The position numbers and the translations under genes were made by a program. 64,000 bases of DNA from Coriobacteriales bacterium (GTDB lineage: Bacteria; Actinomycetota; Coriobacteriia; Coriobacteriales; UBA8131), in NCBI GenBank assembly GCA_031290175.1, contig JAITOC010000009.1, positions 10,285 to 74,284 of the forward strand. The letters are read 5' to 3'. The notes under the pieces were generated by a model that saw only the letters and a program-made list of their open reading frames with translations, searched no databases and was not told where the DNA came from. This document shows, in pieces, positions 7,783-48,693 of the stretch (position 1 is its first letter; each line of letters begins with the position of its first letter).

Positions 7783-7811
7783 GCAGGAGTAGGCCGTTGA
7801 GGGGAATGTAG

Positions 7812-14352: not shown

Positions 14353-14362
14353 GGCAACGGAA

Positions 14363-16416: not shown

Positions 16417-17052
16417 TTAAAAGCCGAGAAGGTTCTTGGCAACACACACGGCCTTTGTTGCATCCTCTGAATACGCATCGGCTCCAACCTCATCGCAATA
16501 GGCCTGCGAGACGGCTGCCCCACCGATCATGACCTTGACGCGCTTACGAAGCCCTGCTTTTGTGAGCGCGTTGAGTATGCCCTCTATGCGCGTCATCGTT
16601 GTGGCGAGGAGCGCGGACAGAGCAACGATATCGGGCTTATTCTCCATGACTCCGGCGACAATCCGCTCGGCGGATACGTCAACGCCTAAATCCACTACTT
16701 CGAACCCAGCTCCTTGCAGCATATGCTTGACAAGAGTCTTGCCTATATCGTGCATATCGCCTTCAACCGTCGCTATAATGACCCTCCCCAACGGCTTGGC
16801 GTCAGGCAGCACAAATTCACCTATGAGCAGGCTCGTTCCAACGTTATAGGCTTTCGTTGCATTGAGTACCTCAGGGATAAAAGCCTCGCTGTCCCTGAAC
16901 CGGACTCCCAGTACATACATTCCCTTGAGTAATCCCTCATCAAGGATCTTCTGTGCAGGTATCCCCGACTCCAGCGCCTGAGTGACGAGAAGGGAAACCT
17001 CTCGTATCTGTCCTTTTTGGACATGCTGAGATATAGATTCCAAAATATCCAA
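16417..17052 (-). CDS. cobalamin-binding corrinoid protein (MtaC/MtbC-like), stand-alone
   Basis: 211 aa with an N-terminal helical cap plus a Rossmann B12 domain carrying the DxHxxG motif (GDMHDIGK). It is a clear paralog of the MtaC-like gene at 44224-44856. Confidence 0.9.
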   Translation of the reverse strand: MDILESISQHVQKGQIREVSLLVTQALESGIPAQKILDEGLLKGMYVLGVRFRDSEAFIPEVLNATKAYNVGTSLLIGEFVLPDAKPLGRVIIATVEGDMHDIGKTLVKHMLQGAGFEVVDLGVDVSAERIVAGVMENKPDIVALSALLATTMTRIEGILNALTKAGLRKRVKVMIGGAAVSQAYCDEVGADAYSEDATKAVCVAKNLLGF

Positions 17053-33042: not shown

Positions 33043-33363
33043 ATGCACACTGAATCAGGACACACTTCACATCCACACGAGCATTCGCACGCACATATCC
33101 ATGAGCATTCACATGAGCACCCCTGTGATAACCTGCACACCCATCAGCATCCCGTGGGACAGAATGAGACCAGCGCGCTGCTGGGATATCTCATCGAGCA
33201 CAACACGCAGCACACCGACGAGCTGCTCACCCTTGCCGGCGATGCACAACAGAACGGATTGGTCGAGGTAGCAAAACGCATCGAAGCCGGTGCGACGCTC
33301 TACCGATCAGGCACCGAGGAGCTGGTCAAAGCACACGCACTCCTAAGAAAGGCGACAGTATAA
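33043..33363 (+). CDS. histidine-rich putative Ni/Co-binding protein (CooJ-like role inferred)
   Basis: 106 aa from ATG 33043, preceded by AAAGGAGAA. The N-terminal 40 residues are about 40 percent His (HPHEHSHAHIHEHSHEH), followed by a helical C-terminal domain. TAATG overlap with cooT. Confidence 0.6.
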   Translation: MHTESGHTSHPHEHSHAHIHEHSHEHPCDNLHTHQHPVGQNETSALLGYLIEHNTQHTDELLTLAGDAQQNGLVEVAKRIEAGATLYRSGTEELVKAHALLRKATV

Positions 33364-33557
33364 TGTGCCTCTCAACAGTACGCTACGCAACTGACAGCGA
33401 GTCGGACGCCCCTATCGCCAGCAACGTCACCTCTGTCGTTGTCAACGGCAGCAGGATAATGCTTACCGACCTTATGGGAAGCGAAATTGAGGTTGTTGGG
33501 GCAATCGTGCGGGTTGATCTCATAAAGAACCATATCATCATCGCGACCGCTGCTTGA
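33363..33557 (+). CDS. cooT: CooT family nickel-binding CODH maturation protein
   Basis: 64 aa. Starts MC (conserved Cys2) and shows the CooT-like pattern ...IMLTDLMGSEIEVVGAIVRVDLIKNHIII. Confidence 0.78.
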   Translation: MCLSTVRYATDSESDAPIASNVTSVVVNGSRIMLTDLMGSEIEVVGAIVRVDLIKNHIIIATAA

Positions 33558-33569
33558 ACACACTTCGGA

Positions 33570-35072
33570 TCACTCGTTCTTGAGCAGCTCGAATGACAGA
33601 AGCACGTACCACTGAGAATCGAAGTTCGTCATGTCGATGCCACATATCTTCTGGATACGCTCAAGCCGATAAGAAAGCGTGGTGCGATGGATGAAGAGCT
33701 CACGTGCCGTATGTGCCAGATTGAGATGGTTTTTCAGGTAGACATACAGCGTATTGTACAGCTCGGCATGATGCTCCCTGTCGTATGCTCTCAGGGCAAG
33801 CAGTTCCGGGGAACAGACCAAGGTCGCAGGTAGTGCCGTAGTGCAACTTTTAAGCAGGAGTGGCTTCACGATCCTATCGAAATGGAACAGTTCTCTATAG
33901 GGAAACGCCTGGGGGCCGAGCTCGAGCGCCAGGTCTGCTTGAGCACCATACTGACGCAGGTCGTCTAACCCGGAGAAGATGTTGCTCATCCCTGCTTTCA
34001 TGAAATTATCCCGCAGATACAGCGTCAATATCCGCTCAAACTCATCCCTGCTCCCCCGATACAGATCCAGATTGATGATAGCAACGATGCTTTCTCCGAG
34101 CTCGAACACGCCAGTCTCCGCAAGCATGCTCGCGATACGTTCGCGGATGAACCTGAGGGTTCGATCTCGATGCACCCTGATGTCGATGTGGAACCTCAGG
34201 GACACATAATGGTGCTGCGGCAACCACCCATAACCTTCGAGCTTCCTGACGATAGATTCCGTCTTCGTGAGGGAGCCCTCCATGATGAGTTTCAGGGTGT
34301 CCGCCAGACCGGGTTCCGCCGGGGTATACTCCGGCACGAAACCGATGGCCAGATGGGTGATCTCCGCAAGGTACTCCAACAAGACGGCGTCAGAGGATTT
34401 CAGAGCCTGCTTGAACTCAATCAGGATGAGGCGATACTTGAGCATGTCCTGTTGCACGATATTGACGCAGAACCCACGCTTCTCCTGTATGAGCAAGGGC
34501 AGGACATGGATACTCCCTGCCAGAGCTGAACTTGTGTCCATGGCAGAGCGCATCAGATAGGGCAACCGCATGCTGTTGAGAAGGGGCACCAGGTCAGGAT
34601 CTACCCCGATGTCATTCGAGAAGGCGACGGCCTTGAAGTTGACATCGTGAAGAAGCAGGGGGTTGCCGAACAGTTCGGTGCTCACATCGATCATCGCCTG
34701 CACATCCGATCCACTGCTGAGCATGGAATGTATACGTGCCTCCCAGAGATCATAGCGCGCAAAGATGTCCTGGAGGCCGTTGTGAACCTTGAACAGCGTA
34801 GCGCCGCTGTTGATGACAACGGCAGCATCGAAGTGCTCCAGGAGCTCCTCCGGAGCCGTACCGACGATGAGGATGAGCGATGAGACGGTGTTGGGAGGCA
34901 GAGGAATGTCGGAGGCGTCCTCGACAAGGTAGACCTGATCATCCATCCACGTTGTCCCCGGCTCGACGAAGAGGATGCGATGGATGACTGGCTTGCTGTC
35001 AGGCGTGCCGATAACGGTGCAATCAAAGGCCTCTTTCAGCCCCTCGGATATCATTTCAGCACTGATCTTCAT
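33570..35072 (-). CDS. PucR family transcriptional regulator
   Basis: 500 aa with the C-terminal PucR HTH ARELFIHRTTLSYRLERIQKICGIDM. ATGA overlap with the upstream DUF3786 gene. Confidence 0.85.
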   Translation of the reverse strand: MKISAEMISEGLKEAFDCTVIGTPDSKPVIHRILFVEPGTTWMDDQVYLVEDASDIPLPPNTVSSLILIVGTAPEELLEHFDAAVVINSGATLFKVHNGLQDIFARYDLWEARIHSMLSSGSDVQAMIDVSTELFGNPLLLHDVNFKAVAFSNDIGVDPDLVPLLNSMRLPYLMRSAMDTSSALAGSIHVLPLLIQEKRGFCVNIVQQDMLKYRLILIEFKQALKSSDAVLLEYLAEITHLAIGFVPEYTPAEPGLADTLKLIMEGSLTKTESIVRKLEGYGWLPQHHYVSLRFHIDIRVHRDRTLRFIRERIASMLAETGVFELGESIVAIINLDLYRGSRDEFERILTLYLRDNFMKAGMSNIFSGLDDLRQYGAQADLALELGPQAFPYRELFHFDRIVKPLLLKSCTTALPATLVCSPELLALRAYDREHHAELYNTLYVYLKNHLNLAHTARELFIHRTTLSYRLERIQKICGIDMTNFDSQWYVLLSFELLKNE

Positions 35073-35725
35073 CGTCTGCTGCCATTCCGTATGGCTATGA
35101 GATGGTTGATACTGATATCACCTATGACCGCAAGATCCTCCGCTGAGAACGCGGAGCGGAAGTTCTCGTCAAAGAGCACCTGGACTGACGGGGGGAACTC
35201 ATCATCTGCTGCCCATATCAGGATGCTCATGGGAAAACCGGAAAGGAACTCGAAGCAATACCCCACATCAGCATGAGCGACGCGTCTGGCATTGAGCTGT
35301 GATGCCCGCTCCATGACCTGCCCCAGGGATTCCGGATCACGACCGAACTCCCGCAGCAGTCTCCCAATGACGCGTCCCTGGAAATTGCTGGCATAGGTCT
35401 GTGCCCGGGGGAACTCCCGGTACGCCAACTCCCTGCCGGTCGGTTCCGTAAAGCACCCTTCGATGAGGAATCGCAGGATAAGGATACGTTCATAGGCTCG
35501 AGCTTCGGTGAGCTCTTCTTCTCTGACCATCGAGAAGTGTGGCCAGGATACCCGGTACCCCTGCCCCATGAGCGTCAGGCGGAACACCGCCGCGCCCTGC
35601 TCATATTCCAGCCCTGTGCGCAGGGCGATAACAGAGGGATCCATGCCCTCATAGAGAGCAGTGTAATGCTCAAGGGCTCGTGCGGTCAGCTGGTCATCCT
35701 GTGGGGACGGAGCCGTTTTTGCCAT
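35069..35725 (-). CDS. DUF3786 domain-containing protein
   Basis: 218 aa from ATG 35725, 11 nt after the RACo stop codon. The track ORF extends to 35974, but that part overlaps the RACo 3' end. It is a paralog of 45068-45745. The family name is from memory. Confidence 0.6.
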   Translation of the reverse strand: MAKTAPSPQDDQLTARALEHYTALYEGMDPSVIALRTGLEYEQGAAVFRLTLMGQGYRVSWPHFSMVREEELTEARAYERILILRFLIEGCFTEPTGRELAYREFPRAQTYASNFQGRVIGRLLREFGRDPESLGQVMERASQLNARRVAHADVGYCFEFLSGFPMSILIWAADDEFPPSVQVLFDENFRSAFSAEDLAVIGDISINHLIAIRNGSRR

Positions 35726-35738
35726 TCTCGCTACACTT

Positions 35739-37673
35739 TCATCTGGAAAAGAGCGATGCATCGGTATGGGGCAGGAAGCAGGCCGCGACGAATTCATCCA
35801 TATAGGACGGCATGGAGCTGAGCTCGACGTAGGTGATGTTATTCGCCAGAGCACACAGCTCGTCGTATGCCTCAGATGCCGAAAGAATCGCGTAGGAACC
35901 CGCCAGGGACGTATTCCCGATATAGGAATAACCCTCCCTTGGAATATTGGGCAGCATTCCAACTCCCACTGCATGCTCGATATCGATGGCGCTCCCTATG
36001 CCGCCCGCGATGTAGATGTGCTCGATGACGCTCATATCCATGTCCGCAATGGCAAGAATCGTGCGGATGGCCGAGAAGACCGAGCCTTTTGCGCGTATGA
36101 AGTTTTCGATATCCGCGTCATTCAGCGCCACCTCCTTGGCACCATCTGCCTCCTCAGCGGTTGCGATGATATAGGAGGTGCTTCCCCATTCGTCTTTTCG
36201 TATCCGATCCCCCTCCCGCTGAAACCGCCCTCGGGCATCTATGATCCCCGTCCGATAGAGTTCACCGATGGCGTCGATCAGACCCGAGCCGCAGACGCCC
36301 CTGGGCTTCTGATCGGGCTCCCCTATCACCTTGTAGCAGGGGTTCATCGTTGCGTCGTCAATCTCAAGCGCTTCGATAGCTCCATCGGTCGCCCGCATGC
36401 CGCAACTGATATCGCCTCCCTCAAAAGCAGGACCGGCGCTGCACGCACAGGCCATCAGGAAGTCAGAATTGCCGAAGACTATCTCACCGTTGGTTCCGAG
36501 GTCAATCAACATGGAAAAGGAGTCGCTGCGGCCGATCATGGAGGCAAGGACGCCCGCCGTTATGTCGCCCCCCACATAACTACCGACGGCGGGAGCAAGA
36601 AGCACGCGGGCATCAGGGTTTACCTCAGCCATCAACTCGGAGCCCCGGAGCCCCTCCAGGGAGAAGAATGCGGGAACGTAGGGCTCCAGCCGCAAATGGT
36701 TGCCGTAGACCCCCGTGAAGAGATGGATCATCGTGGTATTGCCCGCTACGGCGACACGCACGATGGAGGAAGCGCGGCGATTGATGCTTTCGACCAGGGA
36801 TCTCACCAATGGCTGCAGGCACTCTGTGACGATCGCCTCGCGCAAGCGCTCCAGACCGCCTGCGCGAGTGGACTCGATAAGGCGATTGATGACATCGGCA
36901 CCGAAGCGTATCTGCCCGTTGCCCGCCGACCCCGAGGCCAGTATCTGTCCGGTACTGAGGTCGGTCAGCAAGGCCGATACCGTCGTCGTACCGATATCGA
37001 TCGCCAGCCCCAGAGGAGCCTCGTTCTTGGATGAGACATCAAGGATGGTCAGGTTCCCGTTCGATTCCGTCTGGATAGTTGCCACAACGGTAAAGTCTGT
37101 CTCGCGGAGCGCGTGTGGCAAGACGCGAAGCGCACCGATTCCGACGCTTATCCTCTCCTCGGATACCCCAGTGCTTCCCGCCAGGGCGTGTAGCAGGCGC
37201 TCCTGATCCGCCTGGGCATCATCAAGCGTGGGAACCGAAAGGCTGACCTCACGCAACTCATACCCCTCAACAAGGGTGTGTCCAAGGCGAGCCAGTATCC
37301 CAGTAATGGCCGTGCGTGCGGCCTCCTCACGTGGGTTATCACTGCTGGAGACTCGTATTCCGCTCTGATATGCGGAGGCCTCAACGGGAACCTCAACCTC
37401 GATATCCCCGCGCAGGGTGCTGACGCATGCCAAGACCCATCCTTGGGCTGATTCCGCATCGTTTATGTGGCGGTTCTTGGGACTTTCCACCTCGCCGCGA
37501 ACCACGCGCACGCGACACTTCCCACAGGTCATATTCCCTGCACAGGGAGCGTCGATGGGCACGTTCGCATGCTTTGCGCTATCCAGCAGACTTGTGCCAA
37601 CGGCTGTTGATGCAACAATCTTCCGACCATCAGCAAGAGCGAAATTGACCCTGACAGCATCCATGTGAACCAA
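35739..37673 (-). CDS. reductive activator of corrinoid proteins (RACo; [2Fe-2S] plus ASKHA/DUF4445 ATPase, COG3894)
   Basis: 644 aa. Has the N-terminal plant-type ferredoxin motif CAGNMTCGKCRV and an ASKHA region GLAIDIGTTTV...DLGTNGEI. Alternative ATG at 37664. Confidence 0.85.
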   Translation of the reverse strand: MVHMDAVRVNFALADGRKIVASTAVGTSLLDSAKHANVPIDAPCAGNMTCGKCRVRVVRGEVESPKNRHINDAESAQGWVLACVSTLRGDIEVEVPVEASAYQSGIRVSSSDNPREEAARTAITGILARLGHTLVEGYELREVSLSVPTLDDAQADQERLLHALAGSTGVSEERISVGIGALRVLPHALRETDFTVVATIQTESNGNLTILDVSSKNEAPLGLAIDIGTTTVSALLTDLSTGQILASGSAGNGQIRFGADVINRLIESTRAGGLERLREAIVTECLQPLVRSLVESINRRASSIVRVAVAGNTTMIHLFTGVYGNHLRLEPYVPAFFSLEGLRGSELMAEVNPDARVLLAPAVGSYVGGDITAGVLASMIGRSDSFSMLIDLGTNGEIVFGNSDFLMACACSAGPAFEGGDISCGMRATDGAIEALEIDDATMNPCYKVIGEPDQKPRGVCGSGLIDAIGELYRTGIIDARGRFQREGDRIRKDEWGSTSYIIATAEEADGAKEVALNDADIENFIRAKGSVFSAIRTILAIADMDMSVIEHIYIAGGIGSAIDIEHAVGVGMLPNIPREGYSYIGNTSLAGSYAILSASEAYDELCALANNITYVELSSMPSYMDEFVAACFLPHTDASLFSR

Positions 37674-37760
37674 CGTTCTACTCTATTTTCCCTGTGGGTA
37701 TAGTTTATGTTCTGTAGAGCGTTTATTTCTTGTGATAAATCACCCAGCTTTTGTAATTTC

Positions 37761-38993
37761 CTATCGAATCGAATTACGATAGCGATTCGGGGAGGTTTTG
37801 GCATAGCGCATAAACACTTTGGTGAAGTAGCTTTGATCCGAGTATCCGGTGAGGGTGCTCACGTCTGCCAGGCTAATCGATGAGTCGTGGAGGAAGTCCT
37901 TGCTCCTCTCGATACGGAAGCGATTGAGGTAGTCACGAAACGAATACCCAGTCTCCTCTTTGAAGAGCCGACTGAGATACTGCGGTGCGATATAGATGTG
38001 CGCCGCCGCGTCTTCGATGGTCATTCTCTTCGAATAATTCACCTGAATGTAATTAATGGCCTCACGAACAAGGTCGGAGCGTTTCGAATAGGGATTCTTG
38101 ATGACATATCCCGAATAGAGACTGAGGAACCCATTGAGCCACAGGATTATGTCTTGAAGGTTATCGAGGGCATCTACCTGTGGCAAAAGCTCTTTCTTCT
38201 GATCTTTGATGTATTCTTCCTGAGCACCATCGCGGATCATAGCGGCAGTCAGGTAGGTCATAATCTCTACGATCTGTTTGCGGATTGCGTCAAGATTCTT
38301 TCCGGGATGGAACAACATCATATCGACAATATCTCTCAACAGTATCTGAGCCGCGTTCGTATTGATGGAGGCAAGCAGCTGAGTCAGCTTCTGCACCTCA
38401 TCCAACATCCTTCGCCCATTGTCCTGTTCGGTCTCATTGAAGAACGAGTTAACATAATCGGAAAGCTGTTTGTTGGGCGAGAAGCTCTCATCGATACTCT
38501 CGAAATATTCGGGGCGCGTACCGTCACTGACATACTCGGCATTGATATGCAGTTGCTCAGAAAGCGCAAGGAGACTGGTGGCGTCGCGCACAGGAATGGT
38601 AGACAATTCCTCGAGCAGGCCGTGATAATCGCCTGTCGGTATCTTTGGCAGGAGTTCATACTCAAAATAATCCTCGATCGAACTCATCAGGATAGGCCCG
38701 CCAAAAACAGACAGGTACTTCTTGGCTTCTCGATATACCGGGGAGACGAAAAAGAAAAAACCCCTCGGGTCGGCGAAGATATAGCGTCCTCTGAACCTCA
38801 GGGTCTCATAACTTGCCTTGATAATGGATGCCTGACAGCGCTCTCTCACGTCAAGGAGTTCGGAAACCGAATCAAGAACTCCGGCAATCTGTGTATAGTG
38901 CTCTGTTTGGTACACAAGCTTGCCATTATCATCAAGTATGAACACGCCAATCTTGGACACGAAAGAAAAATCATTCATCGTCTCAAATTGCAT
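37761..38993 (-). CDS. AraC family transcriptional regulator with an uncharacterised N-terminal sensor domain
   Basis: C-terminal AraC HTH (LADVSTLTGYSDQSYFTKVFMRYAKTSPNRYR). The gene is visibly AT-richer than its neighbours. I chose ATG 38993; the track start GTG is at 39005. Confidence 0.85.
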   Translation of the reverse strand: MQFETMNDFSFVSKIGVFILDDNGKLVYQTEHYTQIAGVLDSVSELLDVRERCQASIIKASYETLRFRGRYIFADPRGFFFFVSPVYREAKKYLSVFGGPILMSSIEDYFEYELLPKIPTGDYHGLLEELSTIPVRDATSLLALSEQLHINAEYVSDGTRPEYFESIDESFSPNKQLSDYVNSFFNETEQDNGRRMLDEVQKLTQLLASINTNAAQILLRDIVDMMLFHPGKNLDAIRKQIVEIMTYLTAAMIRDGAQEEYIKDQKKELLPQVDALDNLQDIILWLNGFLSLYSGYVIKNPYSKRSDLVREAINYIQVNYSKRMTIEDAAAHIYIAPQYLSRLFKEETGYSFRDYLNRFRIERSKDFLHDSSISLADVSTLTGYSDQSYFTKVFMRYAKTSPNRYRNSIR

Positions 38994-39097
38994 GGACAAC
39001 CCCACTATAACGATATAAAGAAAACATAGTTACACCCTCAACTCTGTGAATAAGGTTATTGTACCATGGCTTCGAAAGTGCGCTACAGCTCGTTGTG

Positions 39098-39658
39098 TTA
39101 TCCGTGGATCAATGAAAGAACCTCATGCCGCGAACGAATGGAGGTCTCGAAGGCGCCCCGCACTGCCGAGGTCGTCGTCGTGGTTCCCGGTTTCTTGACT
39201 CCCCGCATCGACATACAGAGATGCTCCGCCTCGATGACGACGATGACAGCATCCGCCTCAAGCTGCTCCATCAGGGTGTCCGCTATCTGGGATACCATGC
39301 GCTCCTGCACCTGGAGCCTTCGGGCATAGGCCTCCAAAAGCCGAGCCAGCTTGGATAGCCCACAGACATGACCCCGTCTGCCGGGGATGTAGCCGATATG
39401 CGCGACGCCAAAGAAGGGCACCAAGTGGTGTTCACACAGCGAATAAAAAGGCATATCTTTGACGAGGACGATCTCGTGATGATGCTCATCGAATACCTTC
39501 TGCAGTATCGATGCGGGATCCTGTTCGTTACCCGCGAGCACCTCCTTGTACATCCGCGCCACCCGTGCCGGTGTCTCACGCAGCCCTTCGCGCAAGACAT
39601 CCTCCCCTACTCCTTCAAGGATGAGACGGACGCCTTGCTCTATCTTGGTCAGATCCAT
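39098..39658 (-). CDS. folE: GTP cyclohydrolase I (type IA, Zn-dependent)
   Basis: Closely resembles Bacillus FolE as I recall it. Contains [18 protein letters not shown] and [15 protein letters not shown] chose ATG 39658; TTG 39670 is also possible. Confidence 0.93.
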
Positions 39659-39670
39659 AGGAAACCTCAA

Positions 39671-40297
39671 CTATCTCGTTATCGATGGGACAGGAGAAGC
39701 CAGCAGCATCTTCCATACCGCTGGTTCGATGGTGCACGTGGCAGCCATCTCGATGATCGCAACCCCGGGCTGTAACTCCCCGAGCGTTCGGACGATCTGT
39801 TGTTTCGTGCCTTCGTCGACGAGGTCGATCTTATTCAACAGGATTGTGGTTGCCCCTTCAAGCTGTCGTCGTATCATCCTATCATTAAAAGCAATCAGCT
39901 TGATGAAACGACTGGCATCAACGACCACAAGAGAACTGACGGAAGCATCAAGACCTCTGCATGAGCGTATTTCGGCTTCGATCTCGGACGGTATGGCAAG
40001 ACCGGTCGCTTCGATGATGAGCCATTCGGGGTCGTACAACTCCCGAATCTCTTGTATCGTCAAACTGAGATCGTCTGCCAGGTTGCAGCAGATGCAACCT
40101 GCAATCAGCTCCCGCACCTCCAAACCCCCTGCCCGCAAGGTGGCTCCATCAATGCTCACAGAACCGATCTCGTTCTCGATGATGACGACCGCGGTGCCCG
40201 TATCACGACGCGATACATCCTTGAGATACATGGCAAACGGAAGCAGCAGGCTTGTCTTCCCCGAGCCGAGGAATCCGCTCAAGAGCACTATCCTCAT
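39671..40297 (-). CDS. short COG0523 (CobW/HypB/UreG-superfamily) GTPase metallochaperone lacking the CobW C-terminal domain
   Basis: About 208 aa from ATG 40297, preceded by GGAAGGAGGGA. Has Walker A GFLGSGKTS and the CxCC motif GCICCNL. It ends directly before folE. Confidence 0.8.
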   Translation of the reverse strand: MRIVLLSGFLGSGKTSLLLPFAMYLKDVSRRDTGTAVVIIENEIGSVSIDGATLRAGGLEVRELIAGCICCNLADDLSLTIQEIRELYDPEWLIIEATGLAIPSEIEAEIRSCRGLDASVSSLVVVDASRFIKLIAFNDRMIRRQLEGATTILLNKIDLVDEGTKQQIVRTLGELQPGVAIIEMAATCTIEPAVWKMLLASPVPSITR

Positions 40298-40559
40298 CAC
40301 AGTCCCTCCTTCCCTAGTGCGCGGCGTCCCGCAGAAACAAGACCTATCCGTCATCTGTTAGCATGATACTTCCCTCGAAGCCCTGAACTTTGGTGAAGAC
40401 CTACACAGTTCTTGTACTTTTCCTACCTATGCCGTCAAATCGATTCCTGAACCCATGATCCATTGTCTATACTTAGCAGCAAATCCCTTTGATGCTAGAC
40501 AGGGTGCATATACTCCGTACCGCATATGACATCTTCGAAGACAACAACAGGAGGTAGCG

Positions 40560-42074
40560 ATGACCGCCCGGCGACCAATAGTAACATTCACTGATGAACA
40601 GAAGCGTGTTGAGGCAGATGTGGGTGACAACCTGCTCGACCTCATCCTCGAGCAAGGCATCGCCATCAAAGCTGATTGCGGCGGCGTGGGCACCTGTGGC
40701 AAGTGCCGCGTGCTCGTCGATGGCGAGGTACAACATGCCTGCCTCACCCGGGTTGTCCGCGACACCGAGGTGCTCGTGGTCGATGTGGATGCTGCCGATG
40801 GCTATGCGATCCTGACGGAGTTCAGAGAGGATGGTACGGGGAAGGTCGATCTGTCCGGTGCCACAAGCCCGGCAGGATCGGATCTCGCAGTCGCCATCGA
40901 TATCGGCACGACGACGATAGTCGGCAAGCTCCTTGACCGTTCAAGCGGGATCGAATTGGCATCCTTTGCCCAGCTGAACTCCGAGCTACCCTACGGTGCC
41001 GATGTCATCTCGCGTATCAAGGTCTGTCTCGAGGATGCATCCACGCTCTCCTCCCTTATCACCGAGCAGATCGACACCGCAATCTCAGAAATGCTTGCAA
41101 GCAGTCAGGTCGACCGCAGCTCGATCTCACGCGTGGTTCTGGCAGGCAACACGACGATGGTCTATATCCTGCTGAACCTGCCCTGTCAATCGCTTGGCTT
41201 CTCTCCCTTCATCCCCGAGATTCCCGTTGACCTGACTTATCCCTATACTCGGATATTCCATACCGACACGCTCACCTGCGATTGCACCATCATCCCTTTC
41301 ATCTCCGGCTACGTAGGAGGAGATATCACAGCTGGTCTGCTTTCCTTGGCCTCAGAGGACGATTTTATCCTTATGGACATGGGCACCAACGGAGAGCTCG
41401 TGTTTAAGCGGGGAGATCACCTCATCTGCACCGCGACTGCAGCAGGGCCTGCATTCGAGGGCGGCAATATCGAATGCGGATCAGGAAGTGTCCGGGGTGC
41501 CATCTCAAAGGCTTGGTTCGAGGATGGGAAGATTACCTTCAAGACGATTGGTGGGGAGCGACCAGTGGGCATCTGCGGCTCCGGCATCCTCGACCTGGGC
41601 GCTCTGCTCGTCAGGGAGCGGTTCATAGATGAGACCGGCTATCTCGACGATGACCTCGGCAGCGACCGCATCGTCCTGACAGACAAGCCCGACAGCAACC
41701 CTGAGGTCTATTTTTCACAGAAGGATGTACGCCAGTTCCAGCTCGCAAAGAGCGCGACCCGCACAGGTCTTGAGATTATCATCGATGAGATGGGCGGTGC
41801 CCTGCCCTCGAAGGTCTTCCTCGCCGGAGGCTTCGGACAGAACCTCGATCCGGCCAGCGCCATTGCGACAGGCATGCTCCCCGAGAGCTTTGCGGGGCGC
41901 GTATCCCCTATCGGCAACAGCTCCCTCAACGGTGCTATAAAGGCGTGCTTAAATGACGCACTGGTCAGCACCGCCGCAGGTTCCATCGAGCACGCAGTCG
42001 AGATAAACCTCGGATCACATCCGAAGTTCAACGACCTGTTTATGGATCAGATGGCATTCCCAACGGAGTCATGA
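40560..42074 (+). CDS. second, shorter RACo-type corrinoid reductive activator ([2Fe-2S] plus ASKHA)
   Basis: 504 aa. Contains CGGVGTCGKCRV, and ASKHA motifs AVAIDIGTTTIV and DMGTNGELV. RBS AGGAGG upstream. Confidence 0.85.
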   Translation: MTARRPIVTFTDEQKRVEADVGDNLLDLILEQGIAIKADCGGVGTCGKCRVLVDGEVQHACLTRVVRDTEVLVVDVDAADGYAILTEFREDGTGKVDLSGATSPAGSDLAVAIDIGTTTIVGKLLDRSSGIELASFAQLNSELPYGADVISRIKVCLEDASTLSSLITEQIDTAISEMLASSQVDRSSISRVVLAGNTTMVYILLNLPCQSLGFSPFIPEIPVDLTYPYTRIFHTDTLTCDCTIIPFISGYVGGDITAGLLSLASEDDFILMDMGTNGELVFKRGDHLICTATAAGPAFEGGNIECGSGSVRGAISKAWFEDGKITFKTIGGERPVGICGSGILDLGALLVRERFIDETGYLDDDLGSDRIVLTDKPDSNPEVYFSQKDVRQFQLAKSATRTGLEIIIDEMGGALPSKVFLAGGFGQNLDPASAIATGMLPESFAGRVSPIGNSSLNGAIKACLNDALVSTAAGSIEHAVEINLGSHPKFNDLFMDQMAFPTES

Positions 42075-42133
42075 GGTGAGCTCAGACTCGTCACTCCAGT
42101 ACGATACACTTAAGCCCCGAAGAAAGGAAAGCC

Positions 42134-42697
42134 GTGCTAGCAGAGGAAACCAAGGTTGAGACCGCACTGGAAACGCTGAAAGTGTTTCTGTGGCATGAGA
42201 TGACCTCGTTCGACCCGCGCATCCTCAGCTTCACCCAGGAGATACGCTCCATATGTGAGAGCAATGGCTGCGGGCGCTACAACAAGGTCTGGAACTGCCC
42301 ACCCGCTGTAGGCTCACTTAAGGAGCTGGAAAAGAGCCTTCGTGTCTACCGGGAAGCCATTCTCTTCACTGAGTTGTCATGGCTCGAGAGTCCCTTTGAC
42401 TGGGATGCCATGGTCTTGGGTGGCAAGAGTTTTGACAAGCGGCTTGCACTTGCCAATAACCATCTGAAGCAGGCATTCGACGGAACCGACACCGCGTTTA
42501 AGCTCTTTGGCTCAGGGATGTGCCAATCATGTGACTCATGCACCTATCCCGATGCGCCCTGCAGGTATCCCGACCTGCTGTTCACACCAATTGAAGCCTG
42601 TGGGATCAATGTGGTTGAACTCTCCCAAAAAGTGGGCATCGCATACAACAATGGCGAGAACACCGTAACTTGGTTTGGCATGATTCTCATCGCATAG
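42134..42697 (+). CDS. DUF2284 predicted metal-binding protein
   Basis: 187 aa with the Cys patterns CESNGCGRYNKVWNCPP and CQSCDSCTYPDAPCRYP, which I recall as typical of DUF2284. GTG start. Confidence 0.72.
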   Translation: MLAEETKVETALETLKVFLWHEMTSFDPRILSFTQEIRSICESNGCGRYNKVWNCPPAVGSLKELEKSLRVYREAILFTELSWLESPFDWDAMVLGGKSFDKRLALANNHLKQAFDGTDTAFKLFGSGMCQSCDSCTYPDAPCRYPDLLFTPIEACGINVVELSQKVGIAYNNGENTVTWFGMILIA

Positions 42698-42736
42698 CGC
42701 GATAGGATTCTCTGAAGTTTTAGAGACCTTACAGAT

Positions 42737-42771
42737 AAAGGCTCCGCGAAGTGATACTTCACGGAGCCTTT
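42737..42771. terminator. bidirectional intrinsic terminator between convergent DUF2284 and mtaB
   Basis: AAAGGCTCCGCGAAGT-GAT-ACTTCACGGAGCCTTT forms a 16-bp stem with one mismatch, with an A-run before and a T-run after. Confidence 0.7.
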
Positions 42772-42799
42772 ACGCCACATCCCCCGATGTGAGATAGGA

Positions 42800-44176
42800 T
42801 TAGAGGTCGAACTTCTTGGGCTGGAACAAATCGCCGCAGGAGTCCGCCATCTTCGCGAGGAAGGCATCGTCGGTGTCGGGCATACCGGAGAGGGTATCCA
42901 GAAGCAGGTCGATGTAACCGACCTCACGGTCGATAAGGAGCAGCTCGTTGTTATCGTATCCCTTCTGTATCGCCTGAAGAGCCAATTCGGCACCCTTCTT
43001 CATCCTCAGGTAATGCGTATCCTGCTTGACAAGCTCCTGCGAGATTGCCAGGGCGACATCGGGACGCAGGATGTATGCCATCGGGTCAAGCCTGCTGTCA
43101 CTGTCAGCATTGAGATCCCTGATGGCACGCGCGAGCTTGATGTCCTTCCTCAGCGCACCGTTCATGATGCGACAGTCATAGGCCAACTGCTCGAAGGAGA
43201 CAACCTCAGAGAAGCCACCCATCAACTTGATGTGCTGGATGGACTCGTTGCTCCACAGGTCGCACACACAGGAAGCGATGTTGCCAAGAGGCGACAGGTG
43301 CGCAACGGCAGCTACGCGTCCTTCATTCGTGATAGGTGTCCCCGATATGGCCTTAAGATAGATATTCTCATAGCCACAGTCCTTGCTGGGACCCTTTGCG
43401 CCTTCTTCTACGGCGACGAGGGTACGAACGGATGCGACCACGCGATCAGCAGCTGCGAACACGCGTGGAATCATGTTCTTATCGGCAAGCACCAAGGATG
43501 TATTTGCGAATCCGCAGGCAGTGTCGCCCGCGGGGATCGAACCGCTATCGTTGGCAATCTTGACGATCTCGGACCAGAGCCTGCTCATGTCCTTGGAACC
43601 GAGCCAAAGACCAAATATGGTCTTCTCGATGTCACAGTACATACACCCTTCGTCATGGATGTCCTTGCCACCGACCGATTCGATCGACAGAAGGTCGGCG
43701 CCAGCTTCGGCGCTCCTCTTGAAGGTATCAAGCACCAAATCCCACTCTTTGCCCGACCACATGTGCTTGACATTGGGGCCTTCGCGGAGGTCGATGACCG
43801 TGGTGCGCACGGCGGTCTTAGTGCCGTGATTCGTATCGTTGTCACGCAGTACGTCCTTGACGACCTTTGTTATCTCGGCACCCCATTTTGGTACCCAGGT
43901 CATCTCAGGAAGGATCTCGATCTCGGCAACAAAGCCGGGGTGGTACAGTTCATTGCAGCGCTCGGAAATCCCCGTGGCGATCTCATGATAGATACGGACA
44001 ACCTCAGGCCAGGATTCCTCAGAAATGGTCATGGTGGGGAGAGAGAAGTTGACCTCGGGGTACACGATGCCGCCACCAATCTCAAGCCCACTCTTGGTGG
44101 TAACCGGGTACTTCGCACTTCCGAAGATGAAGTCATCCAGATTCTTATAGGCAGTATCTTTGAACAGCTTTCCCAT
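42800..44176 (-). CDS. mtaB: methanol:corrinoid methyltransferase (MT1), MtaB family
   Basis: 458 aa. Aligns end to end with Methanosarcina MtaB as I recall it: ADLLSIESVGGK, GDTACGFANT, SKDCGYENIYLKAI and CDLWSNES are conserved. Confidence 0.88.
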   Translation of the reverse strand: MGKLFKDTAYKNLDDFIFGSAKYPVTTKSGLEIGGGIVYPEVNFSLPTMTISEESWPEVVRIYHEIATGISERCNELYHPGFVAEIEILPEMTWVPKWGAEITKVVKDVLRDNDTNHGTKTAVRTTVIDLREGPNVKHMWSGKEWDLVLDTFKRSAEAGADLLSIESVGGKDIHDEGCMYCDIEKTIFGLWLGSKDMSRLWSEIVKIANDSGSIPAGDTACGFANTSLVLADKNMIPRVFAAADRVVASVRTLVAVEEGAKGPSKDCGYENIYLKAISGTPITNEGRVAAVAHLSPLGNIASCVCDLWSNESIQHIKLMGGFSEVVSFEQLAYDCRIMNGALRKDIKLARAIRDLNADSDSRLDPMAYILRPDVALAISQELVKQDTHYLRMKKGAELALQAIQKGYDNNELLLIDREVGYIDLLLDTLSGMPDTDDAFLAKMADSCGDLFQPKKFDL

Positions 44177-44223
44177 TACAAAAACCTCCTTCGTGATAGC
44201 TTAGAATAGTGTCTCGCAGTAGA

Positions 44224-44856
44224 CTACGAAACAAGTTCCTTGGCAACGTCTACGGCGGAAGACGAATCGGTCGAATACGCATCCGCGCCTATCTTCCTTG
44301 AGAAATCGAGCGATATCGGTGTTCCACCGATCATGACCTTGACCTTGTCGCGCAGACCTGCTGCCTTGAGTGCCTCGATGACGACGCCCTGCTGCTCCAT
44401 GGTGGTCGTGAGCATAGCAGACATGGCGATGATGTCAGCATTGCGCTCCTTGGCGGTCTCGACGAACTTCTCAGGTGCAACATCGATGCCCAGATCGATG
44501 ACCACGAAGCCTGCACCTTCCAGCATCATCTTGACGAGGTTCTTGCCGATGTCGTGCAAGTCACCCTTAACTGTACCGATAACGACGGTACCGATCTCCT
44601 TGACACCATCTGCCACGAGAAGCGGCTTGATGAGCGCCGTGCCCGCTGCAAGAGCCTTGGCAGCCATGAGCACCTCGGGTACGAAGATCTCATTGTTCTT
44701 GAACTTCCCGCCAATGATATCCATTCCTGCCAACAGACCGTCATTCAGGATCTTCTCGGCCTTCACGCCGTCGTCAATGGCCTGTTGCGCGAGCTGCTCA
44801 ACATCCTTGACCTTGCCCCTCTGTACCGCAGTTGAAAGATCGTCGAAAATAGACAT
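44224..44856 (-). CDS. mtaC: methanol-type corrinoid protein
   Basis: 210 aa with the B12-binding DxHxxG motif (GDLHDIGK). It lies directly upstream of mtaB, with RBS GAAGGAGGAA. Confidence 0.88.
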   Translation of the reverse strand: MSIFDDLSTAVQRGKVKDVEQLAQQAIDDGVKAEKILNDGLLAGMDIIGGKFKNNEIFVPEVLMAAKALAAGTALIKPLLVADGVKEIGTVVIGTVKGDLHDIGKNLVKMMLEGAGFVVIDLGIDVAPEKFVETAKERNADIIAMSAMLTTTMEQQGVVIEALKAAGLRDKVKVMIGGTPISLDFSRKIGADAYSTDSSSAVDVAKELVS

Positions 44857-44916
44857 ACCGTTCCTCCTTCTCGTAAACCAAACCTACTGCAACCATTGCC
44901 TTAAGCATCGATGTAC

Positions 44917-44937
44917 GACAGAGCCGACGGTTCTGTC
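44917..44937. promoter_or_regulatory. 21-bp near-perfect palindrome upstream of mtaC (candidate operator)
   Basis: GACAGAGCCG-A-CGGTTCTGTC, with 9 of 10 arm positions symmetric. It lies 61-81 nt upstream of the mtaC start, in the divergent region shared with the DUF3786 gene. Confidence 0.35.
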
Positions 44938-45067
44938 ACGTGAATCTTGCCTACGACATCTCTGCTCCTTACGTGCAGTCTAAACAGACTGAGTTTTAAA
45001 GTATTGTGACAAACGAACCTGATTTTGCACTTTTCCGCCCTTTGCGCAAGGTTCAGTAACGGGGTCT

Positions 45068-45745
45068 TTGCAAATCAACTACAATCTTCCTGTGAAAACT
45101 CTTATGAAAAATGGTTACGAACAAACCTATGAACTTCTGGTGCCCCGTCTGGCAACCCATGATTTTGCCTTGGCGGCGCTCCATCTTGGTCTTGCCCCAC
45201 CTGTAGAAGACAGCCTTGAGGTAACCTTCCTCCGTCGTCGCTATCGGGTCGATCACCAGGGCGTCTTTGAGGCCGACGGGGAGCCCCCCTCGCATATCAA
45301 TTGCAGGAGTGTCCTTATCTACTATGTTACCTGGGGCGGCAAGGGAGAGCCGTATCAGCGTTATCAGCAGCTCCACCAGTTCTCAGGGGGCATCTTCACT
45401 GGGGGCGGCTCCAAGGAACGGGGTGCCGACTGGATGTTGTCTCCGCTGACGGAGCAGTTCAATGGAAAGCCTGAGCTCTTTGAGGCTACGATGGAGGTCA
45501 TGGGTGCCAAAAGGTGTCCTGCGAGTGCGAGTGGGGTCACGACTTGGCATTACCTGGTTCTCCCCAAGATGCCCATTGAGATACGCTATTACGAAAAAGA
45601 TGATGAGTTTGACTGCGAGGTGCACATCCTGTTCGATCAGACCGCGACGCAGTTCACTCCCTTTGAGACGCTCTGCGTACTTCACGGGTGCCTGGTTAGC
45701 GAGATCGTCCAAGTGGGGCGAGAGACACAGAAAAGCGAGTGCTGA
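45068..45745 (+). CDS. DUF3786 domain-containing protein (second copy)
   Basis: 225 aa from TTG 45068 (alternative ATG 45104). It is a paralog of 35069-35725 and is divergent from mtaCB. Confidence 0.6.
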   Translation: MQINYNLPVKTLMKNGYEQTYELLVPRLATHDFALAALHLGLAPPVEDSLEVTFLRRRYRVDHQGVFEADGEPPSHINCRSVLIYYVTWGGKGEPYQRYQQLHQFSGGIFTGGGSKERGADWMLSPLTEQFNGKPELFEATMEVMGAKRCPASASGVTTWHYLVLPKMPIEIRYYEKDDEFDCEVHILFDQTATQFTPFETLCVLHGCLVSEIVQVGRETQKSEC

Positions 45746-45788
45746 GAACGTGACACTCTGAGTCGTCGCACTGCGGCAGAGATAGGCA

Positions 45789-45829
45789 AGGGCACTGTCA
45801 AGGCTCGCCTGAACCCTTTACAGTGCCCT
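45789..45829. terminator. hairpin between convergent genes (possible bidirectional terminator)
   Basis: AGGGCACTGT / ACAGTGCCCT form a 10-bp stem with a 21-nt loop. There is no strong U-tract. Confidence 0.4.
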
Positions 45830-45872
45830 GCTGTCATGAGAAAGCAACACTCTCATGAGGTACCATAGAGCC

Positions 45873-48176
45873 TTATTCGATATATTGTTTGCCGTCACTG
45901 CGCTCCGGAGCGTCGTTGACCTTAAGGGTCTTCACCTTTGCAAAGGTGTTCAAGTCGTAGACGTTGAGCCTGGTCATGGAGTAGACATACAGATAGTTAT
46001 CGACGTAGAAGCCACGCGTATTCCTGCCACCCCAGGCGTCGTCATCATCGAGGGGAAGTTCAGCTTTGAGATAGAAGCCTTTTTTGTCGGTATAGCCGTA
46101 CACGAGATAACTGTCCTCTCCGGGGAAGGCGATCAGGTCATGTTCTGCATCGATAAGGACAGTCTTGTGGTCGTCGAGCGCTGACGTGTAGTAGATATCC
46201 AGTTCCTTGGTGCTGAGCTCGGTCACATCGTAGGGATTGCTCGTATCAAACATACTGAGTTTAACATTGCCGGTGCTACTTCCAACGGCGGCATGCCCTA
46301 TACCAAAGAGGCGCCCTTCAGAGAAGGGGTGCAGATAGGTGCTAAATCCTGGTATCTTGAGCTCGCTCATGATTTTTGGAACTCTCGGGTTTGAGAGATC
46401 CACGGCAAAAAGCGGATCCATCTGGCGATAGGTGACAACATAGCCGACCTTACCCGTAAAGCGTACACTGTAGATGCGCTCATCCTCGGCGAGCCCTGTG
46501 ATACTGCCGACTACTTCAAGATCGGGATCGAGCACGAAAAGTGCGCTTGACGGCTGGTTGTCATCGTATTTATAGCTCTCTATATCGAGCTCCTCATCCA
46601 AGTACACCTTGTAGCCGTAGCTCTGATCCGTTGTTGCGACGCGGAGGTTTCCCTGATACTCGTCAAGCGAGAACTGATTGAGCAGCGTGCCGGGTATGCT
46701 GGTTTCGGCGGTGATGTCCAGGTTGCCCTTATCCGCAGAAACTCGGATGATGTGTGTGTTTGAACCGCTGCGATATTCGGTAACAGTGTAGACGCTCTCC
46801 CGGTAAGGCTCAAGCGCCACATCCTCATAGACAGATGAGCCGAGATAGAGGTTATCGTCGCTCATGTAGACCGTCTCTGTGCCACCCAGCGCCGAGCTGC
46901 TATCGATGAACTGGCGGGAACCAAGGTCGATCGAGTTGATGACTGTGTAAGTAGGTGAATTAACCTGCGGCAAAATGCAGATATCTTCGACCGGAAGGCA
47001 TTCGTAAACACCGTTCACGCCCCTGAGTGGTACGTAGGTTGCGGGATCATCCTCAACAACATCGGACTGGAGAGAGTAGTTCGTGACGAAATAGAGCACA
47101 CCGTCATTTAAGCGTGAAGTGTTGTAGTAACCGCTGCCAGCATACTCACCAACGAGAATCGCGTTTGCAGGATCCTTGACATTGAAGAGCAGAACCTTCG
47201 TCAAGCTATCACCCTGATAATAGTAAGAGTTGCCGCCAGCACGCTTGCCGTCCTCATACCAGGCATAGCTCTGGACAATGACGGCGAGTGTCGAATCGCT
47301 GATATAGAGCTCGTAGACCGTCTGAAGGTTGTCGAGGTCAGCGACAGAGGCACGAAACACCTCAGTCGTATCGGCACCGGTGGCCGTGAAGATGACGAGG
47401 TCGCCCCGCGACACAGCATAGATGTAGTCCCCGTCGGTTTTGACGATATCTCCCTCATCAATGCCTTCGACCTGCGTATTGGTCGTAGAGTAATCAGAGG
47501 AAGCCACGGAGGAGCCAGAATCGGCTGAGATTTCGGGCGCTACCGACGAGCTTCCTAACTCTTTCGCACTTTCTGAGCCACTTGCAGGAGCAGATTGCAT
47601 AACTTCTGCTCCTGCCACAGAGTCCTCTGTACCCAGGGGCTCAACCGTGTCATAGGCAATGTCACCGCCATAGCTCGACGTATAGGAGAATCCGTCTATC
47701 GTCTGGTAAATCTCGGCATAGGATTCGGCTGACACAGGCTTGATGGTCATCTTGTTGCCAGAAGGTCCCTCGTAGGTTGGGCTTAGATCGATAGTTGTAT
47801 TGCCCGAACGACCACCTAGGGCAGTATCAATCAGGTCATCGAGGAACTGCGAGCCAAGAGCGGCGGTTACGCCAACTACAACAAGCACCATGACGGCGGC
47901 GGCGGCGGCAATCCCCCATACGTACCTACGCTTCTTCTGGCGGAGCGGTCGTACGGAGCCAGGAACGTCTATGCGCGCAGAGGGCACGGGGCTGGGCAGC
48001 CCAGAGGTGCCCGATACGGCAGCCGAACCAGAGGCGACAACTGAGCCCGCTGTCTCGGCGGAGTCAGACCCCGAGGGCTGGGCATCCTCTGCCTCCAAAG
48101 CAGTCGTAAGCCTGTCAAGCAGCTCGTCTGACGGCGTCATCTGCTCCTTCATGTTGTTAAGGATGTTTTTAGTCAT
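45873..48176 (-). CDS. anti-sigma factor fused to an extracytoplasmic beta-propeller domain (COG4880/Beta_propel family)
   Basis: 767 aa. It has a short cytoplasmic N-terminus, one TM (WGIAAAAAVMVLVVVGV), and motifs LDEYQGNLRVATT and VRFTGKVGYVVTYRQMDPLFAVDLSNP...ELKIPGFSTYLHP. Its start overlaps the sigma gene by 8 nt. Confidence 0.75.
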   Translation of the reverse strand: MTKNILNNMKEQMTPSDELLDRLTTALEAEDAQPSGSDSAETAGSVVASGSAAVSGTSGLPSPVPSARIDVPGSVRPLRQKKRRYVWGIAAAAAVMVLVVVGVTAALGSQFLDDLIDTALGGRSGNTTIDLSPTYEGPSGNKMTIKPVSAESYAEIYQTIDGFSYTSSYGGDIAYDTVEPLGTEDSVAGAEVMQSAPASGSESAKELGSSSVAPEISADSGSSVASSDYSTTNTQVEGIDEGDIVKTDGDYIYAVSRGDLVIFTATGADTTEVFRASVADLDNLQTVYELYISDSTLAVIVQSYAWYEDGKRAGGNSYYYQGDSLTKVLLFNVKDPANAILVGEYAGSGYYNTSRLNDGVLYFVTNYSLQSDVVEDDPATYVPLRGVNGVYECLPVEDICILPQVNSPTYTVINSIDLGSRQFIDSSSALGGTETVYMSDDNLYLGSSVYEDVALEPYRESVYTVTEYRSGSNTHIIRVSADKGNLDITAETSIPGTLLNQFSLDEYQGNLRVATTDQSYGYKVYLDEELDIESYKYDDNQPSSALFVLDPDLEVVGSITGLAEDERIYSVRFTGKVGYVVTYRQMDPLFAVDLSNPRVPKIMSELKIPGFSTYLHPFSEGRLFGIGHAAVGSSTGNVKLSMFDTSNPYDVTELSTKELDIYYTSALDDHKTVLIDAEHDLIAFPGEDSYLVYGYTDKKGFYLKAELPLDDDDAWGGRNTRGFYVDNYLYVYSMTRLNVYDLNTFAKVKTLKVNDAPERSDGKQYIE

Positions 48177-48693
48177 TGAAGTACTCTCCTTTCAGACGAT
48201 TGCGCAACTGCGCACGTCCTCTTGAAAGCTGCACCTTCACCGTTCCTGCCTCGATTCCCTGCAGCACGCTTATCTGAGCAATGGAGAGATCATCAAAGTA
48301 GAACAAGTGCAATACGGTTCGATACGGTAGTGGGAGCTCCTGGAGCGCCTGGAAGACCCTGTCCTCTTCCTCGGAGCGAAAGTGGAAGCTGTCTTCAGAA
48401 GCGGGCTCGATGTCGGTGTCGTGGATGGGTACGACCTTTTTGTGCCAACTGTTGGAAGTGGCCTGCTTGGAACAATTGATCGTTGTCACGATGAGCCAGG
48501 CCTTGCAGCGCTCATCCGTTTCAAACACCGGTCGTTTTCGATGGTAAGCCAAGAAGACCTCTTGGAAGACGTCTTCGGCGTCCGTCTTGTTGCTGGTGTG
48601 GCTGAGCGCGATACGGTACACCATGTCCTTGTAGTGCATGACTACGGCTTCCGTATCGAGATACGCCGACTGCGCGACTGCATTCATACCCAA
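48169..48693 (-). CDS. ECF-type RNA polymerase sigma-70 family factor
   Basis: 174 aa. Region 2 reads VFQEVFLAYHR and region 4 reads LSIAQISVLQGIEAGTVKVQLSRGR. TTG start lies 6 nt after GGGAGG. Confidence 0.88.
   Translation of the reverse strand: MGMNAVAQSAYLDTEAVVMHYKDMVYRIALSHTSNKTDAEDVFQEVFLAYHRKRPVFETDERCKAWLIVTTINCSKQATSNSWHKKVVPIHDTDIEPASEDSFHFRSEEEDRVFQALQELPLPYRTVLHLFYFDDLSIAQISVLQGIEAGTVKVQLSRGRAQLRNRLKGEYFND

Follow-up and report, generated by a model that had tools for sequence, protein, structure and literature searches.

A stretch of 64,000 nucleotides from a Coriobacteriales metagenome-assembled genome (hereafter, the window) encodes a 208-residue GTPase of the COG0523 type, directly followed by folE, the gene for GTP cyclohydrolase I. 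The protein is probably the intact G-domain of a distinct COG0523 lineage, a metallochaperone that receives its C-terminal domain in trans and is linked to corrinoid and one-carbon metabolism. Judging from gene neighborhoods, this lineage most likely corresponds to subfamily 13 of Haas et al. 2009, a group associated with corrinoid methyltransferases. We read the adjacency of the GTPase gene and folE, which appears peculiar to this locus, as no evidence of a conserved chaperone–client pair.

The GTPase reading frame begins with an ATG, specifies the N-terminus MRIVLLSGFLGSGKTS and ends with a TAG at 39673-39671 (the coordinates of this and all other features are collected in Table 1). A longer open reading frame (ORF) of 227 residues, starting at 40354, was ruled out as the gene because all 23 homologues in the alignment start at M-[KR]-[IV]-x-x-L-S-G-F, and an independent JGI gene call gives the same start both for the GTPase and for folE. 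The sole Pfam domain is PF02492, which spans residues 3-182 (180-position profile, 121 bits versus a cut-off of 20.7), and the Pfam scan found no CobW_C domain (PF07683) in the 208 residues. The initial annotation of this DNA had described a COG0523-type G-domain devoid of a C-terminal domain, and this description holds. The protein displays a Walker A motif GFLGSGKT (residues 8-15), ENEIG (41-45), GCICC (67-71), EATG (96-99) and NKID (155-158), all five of which are invariant across a 24-sequence family alignment. These motifs conform to the COG0523 patterns GxxGxGK[ST], ExxG and NKxD, and ENEIG and GCICC align to the IENEFGE...GCICC of Escherichia coli YjiA, which provides the CxCC hallmark; the C-terminal CobW_C domain with its invariant RxKG, also characteristic of COG0523 proteins, is absent. 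An AlphaFold2 model computed with the family alignment as input folds as a compact single domain (predicted local distance difference test score (pLDDT) 86.8, predicted template-modeling score (pTM) 0.85), and the match to YjiA is restricted to the G-domain (residues 3-165 versus 6-168, E 9e-12). In the NCBI records, the GTPase is MDR3315009.1, named 'hypothetical protein', and FolE is MDR3315008.1.

The short form is widespread. With a threshold of E ≤ 1e-5, a word-indexed search retrieved 1654 relatives, and the top 120 are nearly all 196-215 residues long and carry PF02492 only. An exhaustive HMMER search of 1.84 billion representatives of 50%-clusters yielded 12,897 matches at E ≤ 1e-3, 47 of them at E ≤ 1e-30; among the best 150 representatives, in which length classes were counted, 96 have at most 265 residues and 54 are long. 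A truncation or frameshift private to this genome is therefore ruled out, since the reading frame terminates cleanly in TAG with a ribosome-binding site just behind it and short proteins dominate among the nearest relatives, in keeping with the proposal that the missing domain marks an atypical subfamily. The nearest non-self relatives share 46-48% identity with the window protein. Its best curated model is NF041053, a CobW-related selenoprotein family, which scores 83.3 bits, below its cut-off of 180, and aligns end to end (window residues 1-193 versus model positions 1-190 of 195). The NF041053 proteins, of about 195 residues, have the same architecture limited to a short G-domain, whereas the window protein has no selenocysteine: its gene holds no in-frame TGA and its GCICC is made of ordinary cysteines. 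The ZigA/ZagA model NF038288 reaches 66.8 bits against a cut-off of 600 and covers residues 3-108 only; the CobW model TIGR02475 (64.5 bits versus 332.1) and the YjiA-type model NF008578 (56 versus 361) align solely through the N-terminal half or the G-domain. Among species-representative genomes, the hosts of the short form are methylotrophic anaerobes and include Holophaga foetida, Sporomusa aerivorans, Acetobacterium, Senegalimassilia and other Coriobacteriia, as well as Methanomassiliicoccales and Methanomethylicaceae.

Phylogeny sets this group apart. In a neighbor-joining tree of 136 non-redundant G-domains (184 columns), which contains the Methanimicrococcus proteins of locus L004, one clade holds all 48 short forms and six of the seven forms fused to the GHxK domain described below, separate from 79 classical COG0523 proteins; it recurs in 55 of 60 bootstrap replicates if up to three intruders are allowed. 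The window protein clusters with the fused forms of Methanimicrococcus (Methanosarcinales). NF041053 is the top curated model for the clade members from L004, L081 and L106 and for the window protein, and ZigA, CobW or YjiA is the top model for the classical forms, with 546 bits for a near-ZigA Bacillus protein. A blastp bit-score network of the G-domains did not separate the subfamilies up to 120 bits, owing to a single-linkage effect.

In this lineage, the C-terminal domain is usually encoded by a separate downstream gene, a feature that the initial annotation had overlooked. Directly 3' of the short GTPase genes lies a conserved ORF; in many loci its start and the GTPase stop share 4 nt, and the two genes are often coupled in translation. 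Its product, which we call the partner, consists of a His/Cys-rich stretch (e.g. MSSHHGHDGSHHGHEHNHDHNHAHDHN...) and a domain of about 115 residues with an invariant G-H-x-K motif; Pfam contains no family for it, the sole match being a spurious ZIP-transporter hit on the His stretch. Of the short-form loci, 34 extend 350 nt or more beyond the GTPase gene; in 28 of them, a hidden Markov model (HMM) built from 15 of these ORFs detected the partner directly 3' of the GTPase. L170, L171, L173 and L177 bring the count to 32 of 38 short-form loci other than the window, and the partner accompanies all five of the nearest relatives with a usable flank (L081, L082, L087, L088 and L177). The His-rich stretch is N-terminal in most partners and C-terminal in the Oscillospiraceae-type modules of L090, L170 and L173. 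The GHxK domain is fused to the C-terminus of the GTPase in L004 (two Methanimicrococcus genes, of 363 and 391 residues), L008, L099, L101 and L103; more broadly, the 54 long proteins in the set of 150 representatives include 45 that carry it C-terminally and only five that have the classical R-x-K-G. The occurrence of one and the same domain in split and fused forms identifies the lineage as a split COG0523 group whose C-terminal domain is provided in trans. Searching with a profile of the partner domain recovered 201 proteins, all 'hypothetical', without Pfam assignment and mostly from Methanomassiliicoccales; a search with a single partner sequence recovered only the query itself.

The fused forms, a profile alignment and the topology are suggestive, if not decisive, of the partner domain being a CobW_C derivative. 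Aligned with hhalign to 106 classical CobW_C domains, the partner profile matches colinearly over its full length (Prob 32-40%, E 9e-5 to 3e-4). The AlphaFold2 model of the partner, with pLDDT values of 76-90 over residues 60-160, has the element order β-β-α-β-β-β-α, the same as the YjiA C-terminal domain (PMC11672702). In this model, G-H-x-K sits in the first strand after helix 1, which corresponds to the site of the RxKG arginine finger, located in the β2 strand of ZigA and MigC (PMC13001444). According to the same 2026 preprint, these GTPases carry their own activator in the form of the C-terminal domain, and a cognate domain restores activity in trans (PMC13001444).

We surveyed gene neighbors within 5 kb in loci found by searching with the window's own proteins and a few extra queries. 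Of 35 short-form genes, 20 have a gene for a corrinoid protein, the corrinoid reductive activase RACo, MeTr, MtaB, URO-D, DUF2284 or DUF3786 in this range. The closest relatives carry, in this order, genes for a corrinoid protein, the GTPase, the partner, MTHFR and MeTr, and then, on contigs that reach far enough, FTHFS, FchA and FolD; in one relative the series is RACo, GTPase and partner, with a URO-D gene nearby. The anticipated linkage of the short form to methyltransferase or corrinoid genes was thereby borne out, and the linkage to folE was not: no folE gene lies within 5 kb at any of the 38 other short-form loci. The window locus shows the same association, with the RACo-like gene, DUF2284, MtaB and MtaC at most 4.6 kb from the GTPase gene and AcsV within 2 kb. 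A relative of COG0523 tied to methyltransferase genes is already known: Haas et al. 2009 described subfamily 13, including Methanosarcina MA4382 and MM1072, as linked to corrinoid methyltransferase genes (PMC2770081). Its function is known from neighborhood only, and its members, which occur in methanogens and Clostridia-type anaerobes, share with the window protein the CxCC G-domain and neighbors of the mtaA/mtaB/mtaC, ramM/RACo and MeTr kind; the window protein differs in that no C-terminal domain is fused to it or encoded next to it. Split and short forms are not described in that paper (PMC2770081). Literature searches that combined CobW or G3E proteins with corrinoid methyltransferases turned up nothing beyond Haas 2009 and general reviews, no later paper on split or short COG0523 forms was found, and papers on the mlp cluster and on methanol metabolism in Moorella do not mention such a GTPase. 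As far as the searchable literature goes, the split architecture with an HxK-type trans domain and the orphan copy, in which folE takes the place of the partner gene, are new.

How such a split system would operate is a matter of guesswork as regards the metal, the client and the GTPase-activating role of the partner. By analogy with characterized COG0523 proteins, the G-domain would bind a divalent metal at E-x-E...CxCC; zinc is the likeliest ion, and cobalt or nickel is possible. GTP hydrolysis would then power transfer of the metal to a client. The domain encoded in trans might act as a GTPase-activating and specificity module, with its His-rich tail as a metal reservoir and the invariant G-H-x-K standing in for the RxKG arginine finger of other COG0523 proteins. 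The likeliest clients are metalloenzymes that take part in corrinoid-dependent methyl transfer, for instance at the Zn site of MtaB or of a methyltransferase of the MtaA/URO-D type; alternatively, the system may have a broader Zn-sparing role in these anaerobes. The initial annotation had put forward service to the Zn site of MtaB, or a cobalt/corrinoid step, as its second choice, and this option fits the conserved neighborhoods and subfamily 13 better than a pairing with FolE does.

The neighborhoods also bear on a different role, in which the GTPase handles the corrinoid itself, gating the loading or exchange of cobamide on MtaC-type proteins in the manner of MeaB, or assisting reactivation by RACo. 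A corrinoid protein is the most frequent neighbor of the short form (15 of 35), the stop codon of a corrinoid-protein or RACo gene frequently overlaps the beginning of the GTPase gene, the operons of the nearest relatives (corrinoid protein, GTPase, partner, MTHFR, MeTr) hold no obvious Zn methyltransferase, and the B12 chaperones MeaB and IcmF are themselves G3E GTPases (PMC11672702). We nevertheless consider corrinoid handling unlikely. The CxCC and E-x-E motifs, which are invariant, and the His/Cys-rich partner typify proteins that bind a free metal ion and not a corrinoid, and the similarity to MeaB is limited to the P-loop fold. Moreover, many modules have no corrinoid gene nearby: about one-third of the two-gene modules are surrounded by housekeeping genes, which makes a family-wide role dedicated to corrinoid methyltransferases untenable.

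The window departs from its relatives in lacking the two-gene module. A search with the partner HMM (hmmsearch --max) of all ORFs of at least 40 residues in the 64 kb revealed no homologue of the partner domain (best E 0.28), and folE fills the slot 3' of the GTPase where relatives carry the partner. The His-rich DUF8180 protein encoded at 33043-33363 was considered as a partner and rejected, as a low-complexity His stretch is its only common feature and the domain is not shared. A second contig, with a GTPase at least 90% identical, has the same GTPase–folE order; among the short-form loci sampled, folE linkage is confined to the window and this near-identical twin. It is plausible that the partner is encoded elsewhere in this genome, because partner-less copies exist: in L082/L083, two short GTPase paralogues (7158-7793 and 8001-8642) lie in tandem behind a corrinoid-protein gene, and the pair has only one partner gene, located 3' of both.

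The neighboring folE encodes a Zn-dependent GTP cyclohydrolase I of type IA, with scores above the family cut-offs (PF01227, 2e-72; TIGR00063, 226.4 bits versus 181.6; NF006826, 274.6 versus 162) and with the Cys/His/Cys zinc ligands of this type (CEHH and a downstream Cys) readable in its translation. Its likeliest start is the ATG at 39658, preceded by GAGG at 39668-39665; an alternative TTG at 39670 would leave no gap to the GTPase. The genes abut, as initially described. The two genes are probably co-transcribed, since they are joined by a 12-nt junction containing folE's own ribosome-binding site and no terminator-like site was found between them in a promoter and terminator scan, which gave no signal exceeding shuffled expectation. 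An Rfam scan of 37000-46000 returned no riboswitch match up to E = 1, THF, ZTP and cobalamin riboswitches included. In the 262-nt region upstream of the GTPase gene, no inverted repeat or palindrome was found (40290-40570), and a generic Zur-box pattern had no match, a weak test given that the pattern may not be that of the host.

This junction had led the initial annotation to propose a dedicated pair analogous to that of ZagA, in which the short GTPase acts as the Zn chaperone of the adjacent FolE and sustains the supply of pterin and tetrahydrofolate (THF) for the methyl-THF pathway. Likely co-expression, the type IA Zn ligands of FolE and the replacement of the usual partner by folE are all compatible with this idea, as are the support that ZagA gives FolE under Zn limitation in Bacillus (10.1101/594382; PMC11672702) and the cyanobacterial loci L052 and L060, where folE has classical, long COG0523 genes on one or both sides. 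We find it decidedly unlikely, and the comparative data do not sustain the claim. L052 and L060 are the only other COG0523–folE linkages in the sample; the genes concerned have ZigA as their best model and fall in a clade different from that of the window protein, which itself lies outside the ZigA/ZagA group (67 bits versus 600). The absence of folE from the 38 other short-form loci, and of any ZTP or THF riboswitch upstream, also speaks against the pairing, as does, more weakly, the lack of a match to a Zur-box-like site or palindrome there. The window GTPase moreover has no C-terminal domain, the part that in ZigA-type proteins is believed to bind the client and activate the GTPase (PMC13001444). 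A lineage-specific operon that places THF synthesis under the control of one-carbon genes would explain folE in the partner slot.

In a more radical variant, the orphan G-domain would have lost its trans GHxK partner and become coupled to FolE, made from the same mRNA and encoded where the partner used to be, as a direct client, perhaps also as its activator, thus securing zinc for pterin and THF synthesis in acetogenic, methylotrophic Coriobacteriales. We regard this as quite improbable. If true, it would represent an independent, minimal reinvention of the ZagA–FolE relationship and imply that client recognition by COG0523 proteins needs no C-terminal domain. Finally, the partner may have been lost in a rearrangement that brought folE in, leaving a functionless, decaying G-domain, as could be argued from the absence of the partner in 64 kb versus its adjacency in 32 of 38 relatives and from the low identity to the nearest non-self relatives; this is highly improbable because all catalytic and metal-binding motifs are intact, and it is further opposed by the strong ribosome-binding site, the confident fold prediction, the retention of the gene in the second contig, the tandem GTPases of L082, which have one partner in common, and the fact that the window is only part of a genome.

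Several observations weigh against the interpretation that we favor, a split metallochaperone of the subfamily 13 type. The tight GTPase–folE junction, combined with a Zn-dependent FolE and the link between COG0523 and FolE in Bacillus, would be compatible with FolE as a client in this one organism, and the housekeeping setting of about one-third of the modules does not fit a function dedicated to corrinoid methyltransferases throughout the family. The relationship between the partner and CobW_C draws on a weak profile–profile score and on topology, and a Foldseek search of the PDB with the medium-quality partner model returned nothing significant and did not recover YjiA. The equation with subfamily 13 draws on neighborhoods and on the Methanimicrococcus relative, the tree having been built without MA4382 and MM1072, and the metal and the client are guesses.

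Comparison with better-known proteins places the lineage among G3E GTPases. The Zur-regulated ZagA (Bacillus subtilis YciC) and ZigA (Acinetobacter baumannii), which belong to cluster 1 of the sequence similarity network, share the G3E fold and CxCC with the window protein, and ZagA has a functional link to a Zn-dependent FolE; the window protein differs from both by the absence of the C-terminal domain, the PETEEY linker and the RxKG arginine finger. E. coli YjiA (PDB 1NIJ, 4IXM, 4IXN), the only homologue of solved structure, has the same E-x-E and CxCC ligands and carries CobW_C in cis. CobW, the cobalt chaperone of the CobNST chelatase, belongs to the same superfamily and offers a connection to B12; no cobN, cobS or cobT is present among the annotated genes of the window, and the hosts are anaerobes, in which cobalt enters early in B12 synthesis and is not known to require a CobW-type chaperone. 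The closest architectural parallels to the two-gene module of the relatives are UreG with UreE and HypB with HypA and SlyD, in each of which a small G3E GTPase works with a separate His-rich protein. UreG and HypB nonetheless belong to other subfamilies (the present lineage has CxCC), no urease or hydrogenase genes are tied to the lineage, and the partner is unrelated in sequence to UreE, HypA and SlyD and resembles a CobW_C derivative.

Putative metallochaperones of the COG0523 type are ubiquitous, and to our knowledge few have an established client: CobW, Nha3, ZNG1 and, in part, ZagA. The present lineage appears to be nature's own split version of GTPase activation by a C-terminal domain, with an unannotated partner that occurs in many methylotrophic and gut anaerobes. 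As a two-protein system, it would be tractable for studies of GTP hydrolysis, metal loading and client choice, that is, of the 'self-gapping' mechanism, and could provide a handle on the maturation of the Zn and Co centers of corrinoid methyltransferase systems. The GTPase–folE pairing is an arrangement of one lineage, and a ZagA-like annotation of the window protein would be unwarranted without experiments.

Table 1. Coordinates of features in the window and, where a locus number is given, in loci of relatives
Feature	Position	Strand	Basis or remark
COG0523-type G3E GTPase, G-domain only, 208 aa	39671..40297	-	PF02492
GGAGG ribosome-binding site, 7 nt 5' of the GTPase ATG	40305..40309	-	sequence reading
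folE, GTP cyclohydrolase I type IA, Zn-dependent, 186 aa	39098..39658	-	PF01227, TIGR00063
Spacer of 12 nt from GTPase stop to folE ATG, holding GAGG	39659..39670	-	sequence
Divergent intergenic region between the GTPase–folE and RACo-like/DUF2284 units	40298..40559	.	no riboswitch or palindrome
PocR-sensor/AraC-type transcription regulator, 3' of folE	37761..39005	-	PF10114, PF12833, PF00165
RACo-like corrinoid reductive activase, 504 aa	40560..42074	+	PF00111, PF17651, PF14574
DUF2284, predicted metal-binding protein	42134..42697	+	PF10050, 4e-39
MtaB-family methanol:corrinoid methyltransferase (Zn enzyme family)	42800..44176	-	PF12176, 8e-153
MtaC-type corrinoid protein	44224..44856	-	PF02607, PF02310
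AcsV, 644 aa	35739..37673	-	NF040756, 848 bits versus cut-off 800
Additional corrinoid protein, just past the Ech-like hydrogenase genes	16417-17052	-	
DUF3786 paralogue	35069-35974	-	
DUF3786 paralogue	45068-45745	+	
His-rich DUF8180 (MHTESGHTSHPHEHSHAHIHEHSHEH...)	33043-33363	+	followed by CooT homologue
CooT homologue	33363-33557	+	
ECF-type transporter genes	11055-14926	-	riboflavin-type-related S component, duplicated ABC ATPase
767-aa beta-propeller protein, directly 3' of an ECF-type sigma-70 factor	45873-48693	-	PF09826
Partner gene, L081	7965-8450		
Partner gene, L082	8606-9268		
Partner gene, L088	5893-6495		
Partner gene, L177	~1700-2160		
Partner gene, L171	7602-8114		
Partner gene, L170	7605-8240		
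Partner gene, L173	5166-5657		about 25 more loci have a partner gene
folE beside or between classical long COG0523 genes, cyanobacterial locus L052	1088-1726		
folE beside or between classical long COG0523 genes, cyanobacterial locus L060	6362-7015		

The annotation of the remaining genes supports the label of 'corrinoid island' given to this part of the window, and the corrinoid methyltransferase setting initially described (MtaB, MtaC, a RACo-like protein, AcsV and CODH/ACS genes) is indeed present. A DUF3786 gene follows beyond MtaC. To the left of AcsV are DUF3786, a PucR regulator, the His-rich DUF8180 with CooT, a pterin-binding methyltransferase, CooC and CODH, and further left a second CooC, ACS, CFeSP, AcsE and an Ech-like hydrogenase. 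The additional corrinoid protein and the two DUF3786 paralogues suggest that the island encodes several parallel corrinoid methyl-transfer modules.

The window holds two RACo paralogues, one of the full AcsV type and a linker-less copy of 504 residues, which has the 2Fe-2S, middle and ASKHA domains and is paired with DUF2284. The linker-less RACo-like/DUF2284 unit is transcribed divergently from the GTPase–folE unit. The DUF8180 and CooT genes, flanked by those for the pterin-binding methyltransferase and the PucR regulator, probably serve to handle nickel as CODH/ACS matures; they are not related to the GTPase partner domain.

The energy-coupling factor (ECF)-type transporter set may be a cobamide or vitamin uptake system, and an ORF without Pfam match among its genes may encode the T component. 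A DUF4430 protein adjoins this set; DUF4430 also occurs near the GTPase module of L084. The genes for the beta-propeller protein and the extracytoplasmic function (ECF)-type sigma-70 factor separate the mta genes from a cluster for histidine biosynthesis.

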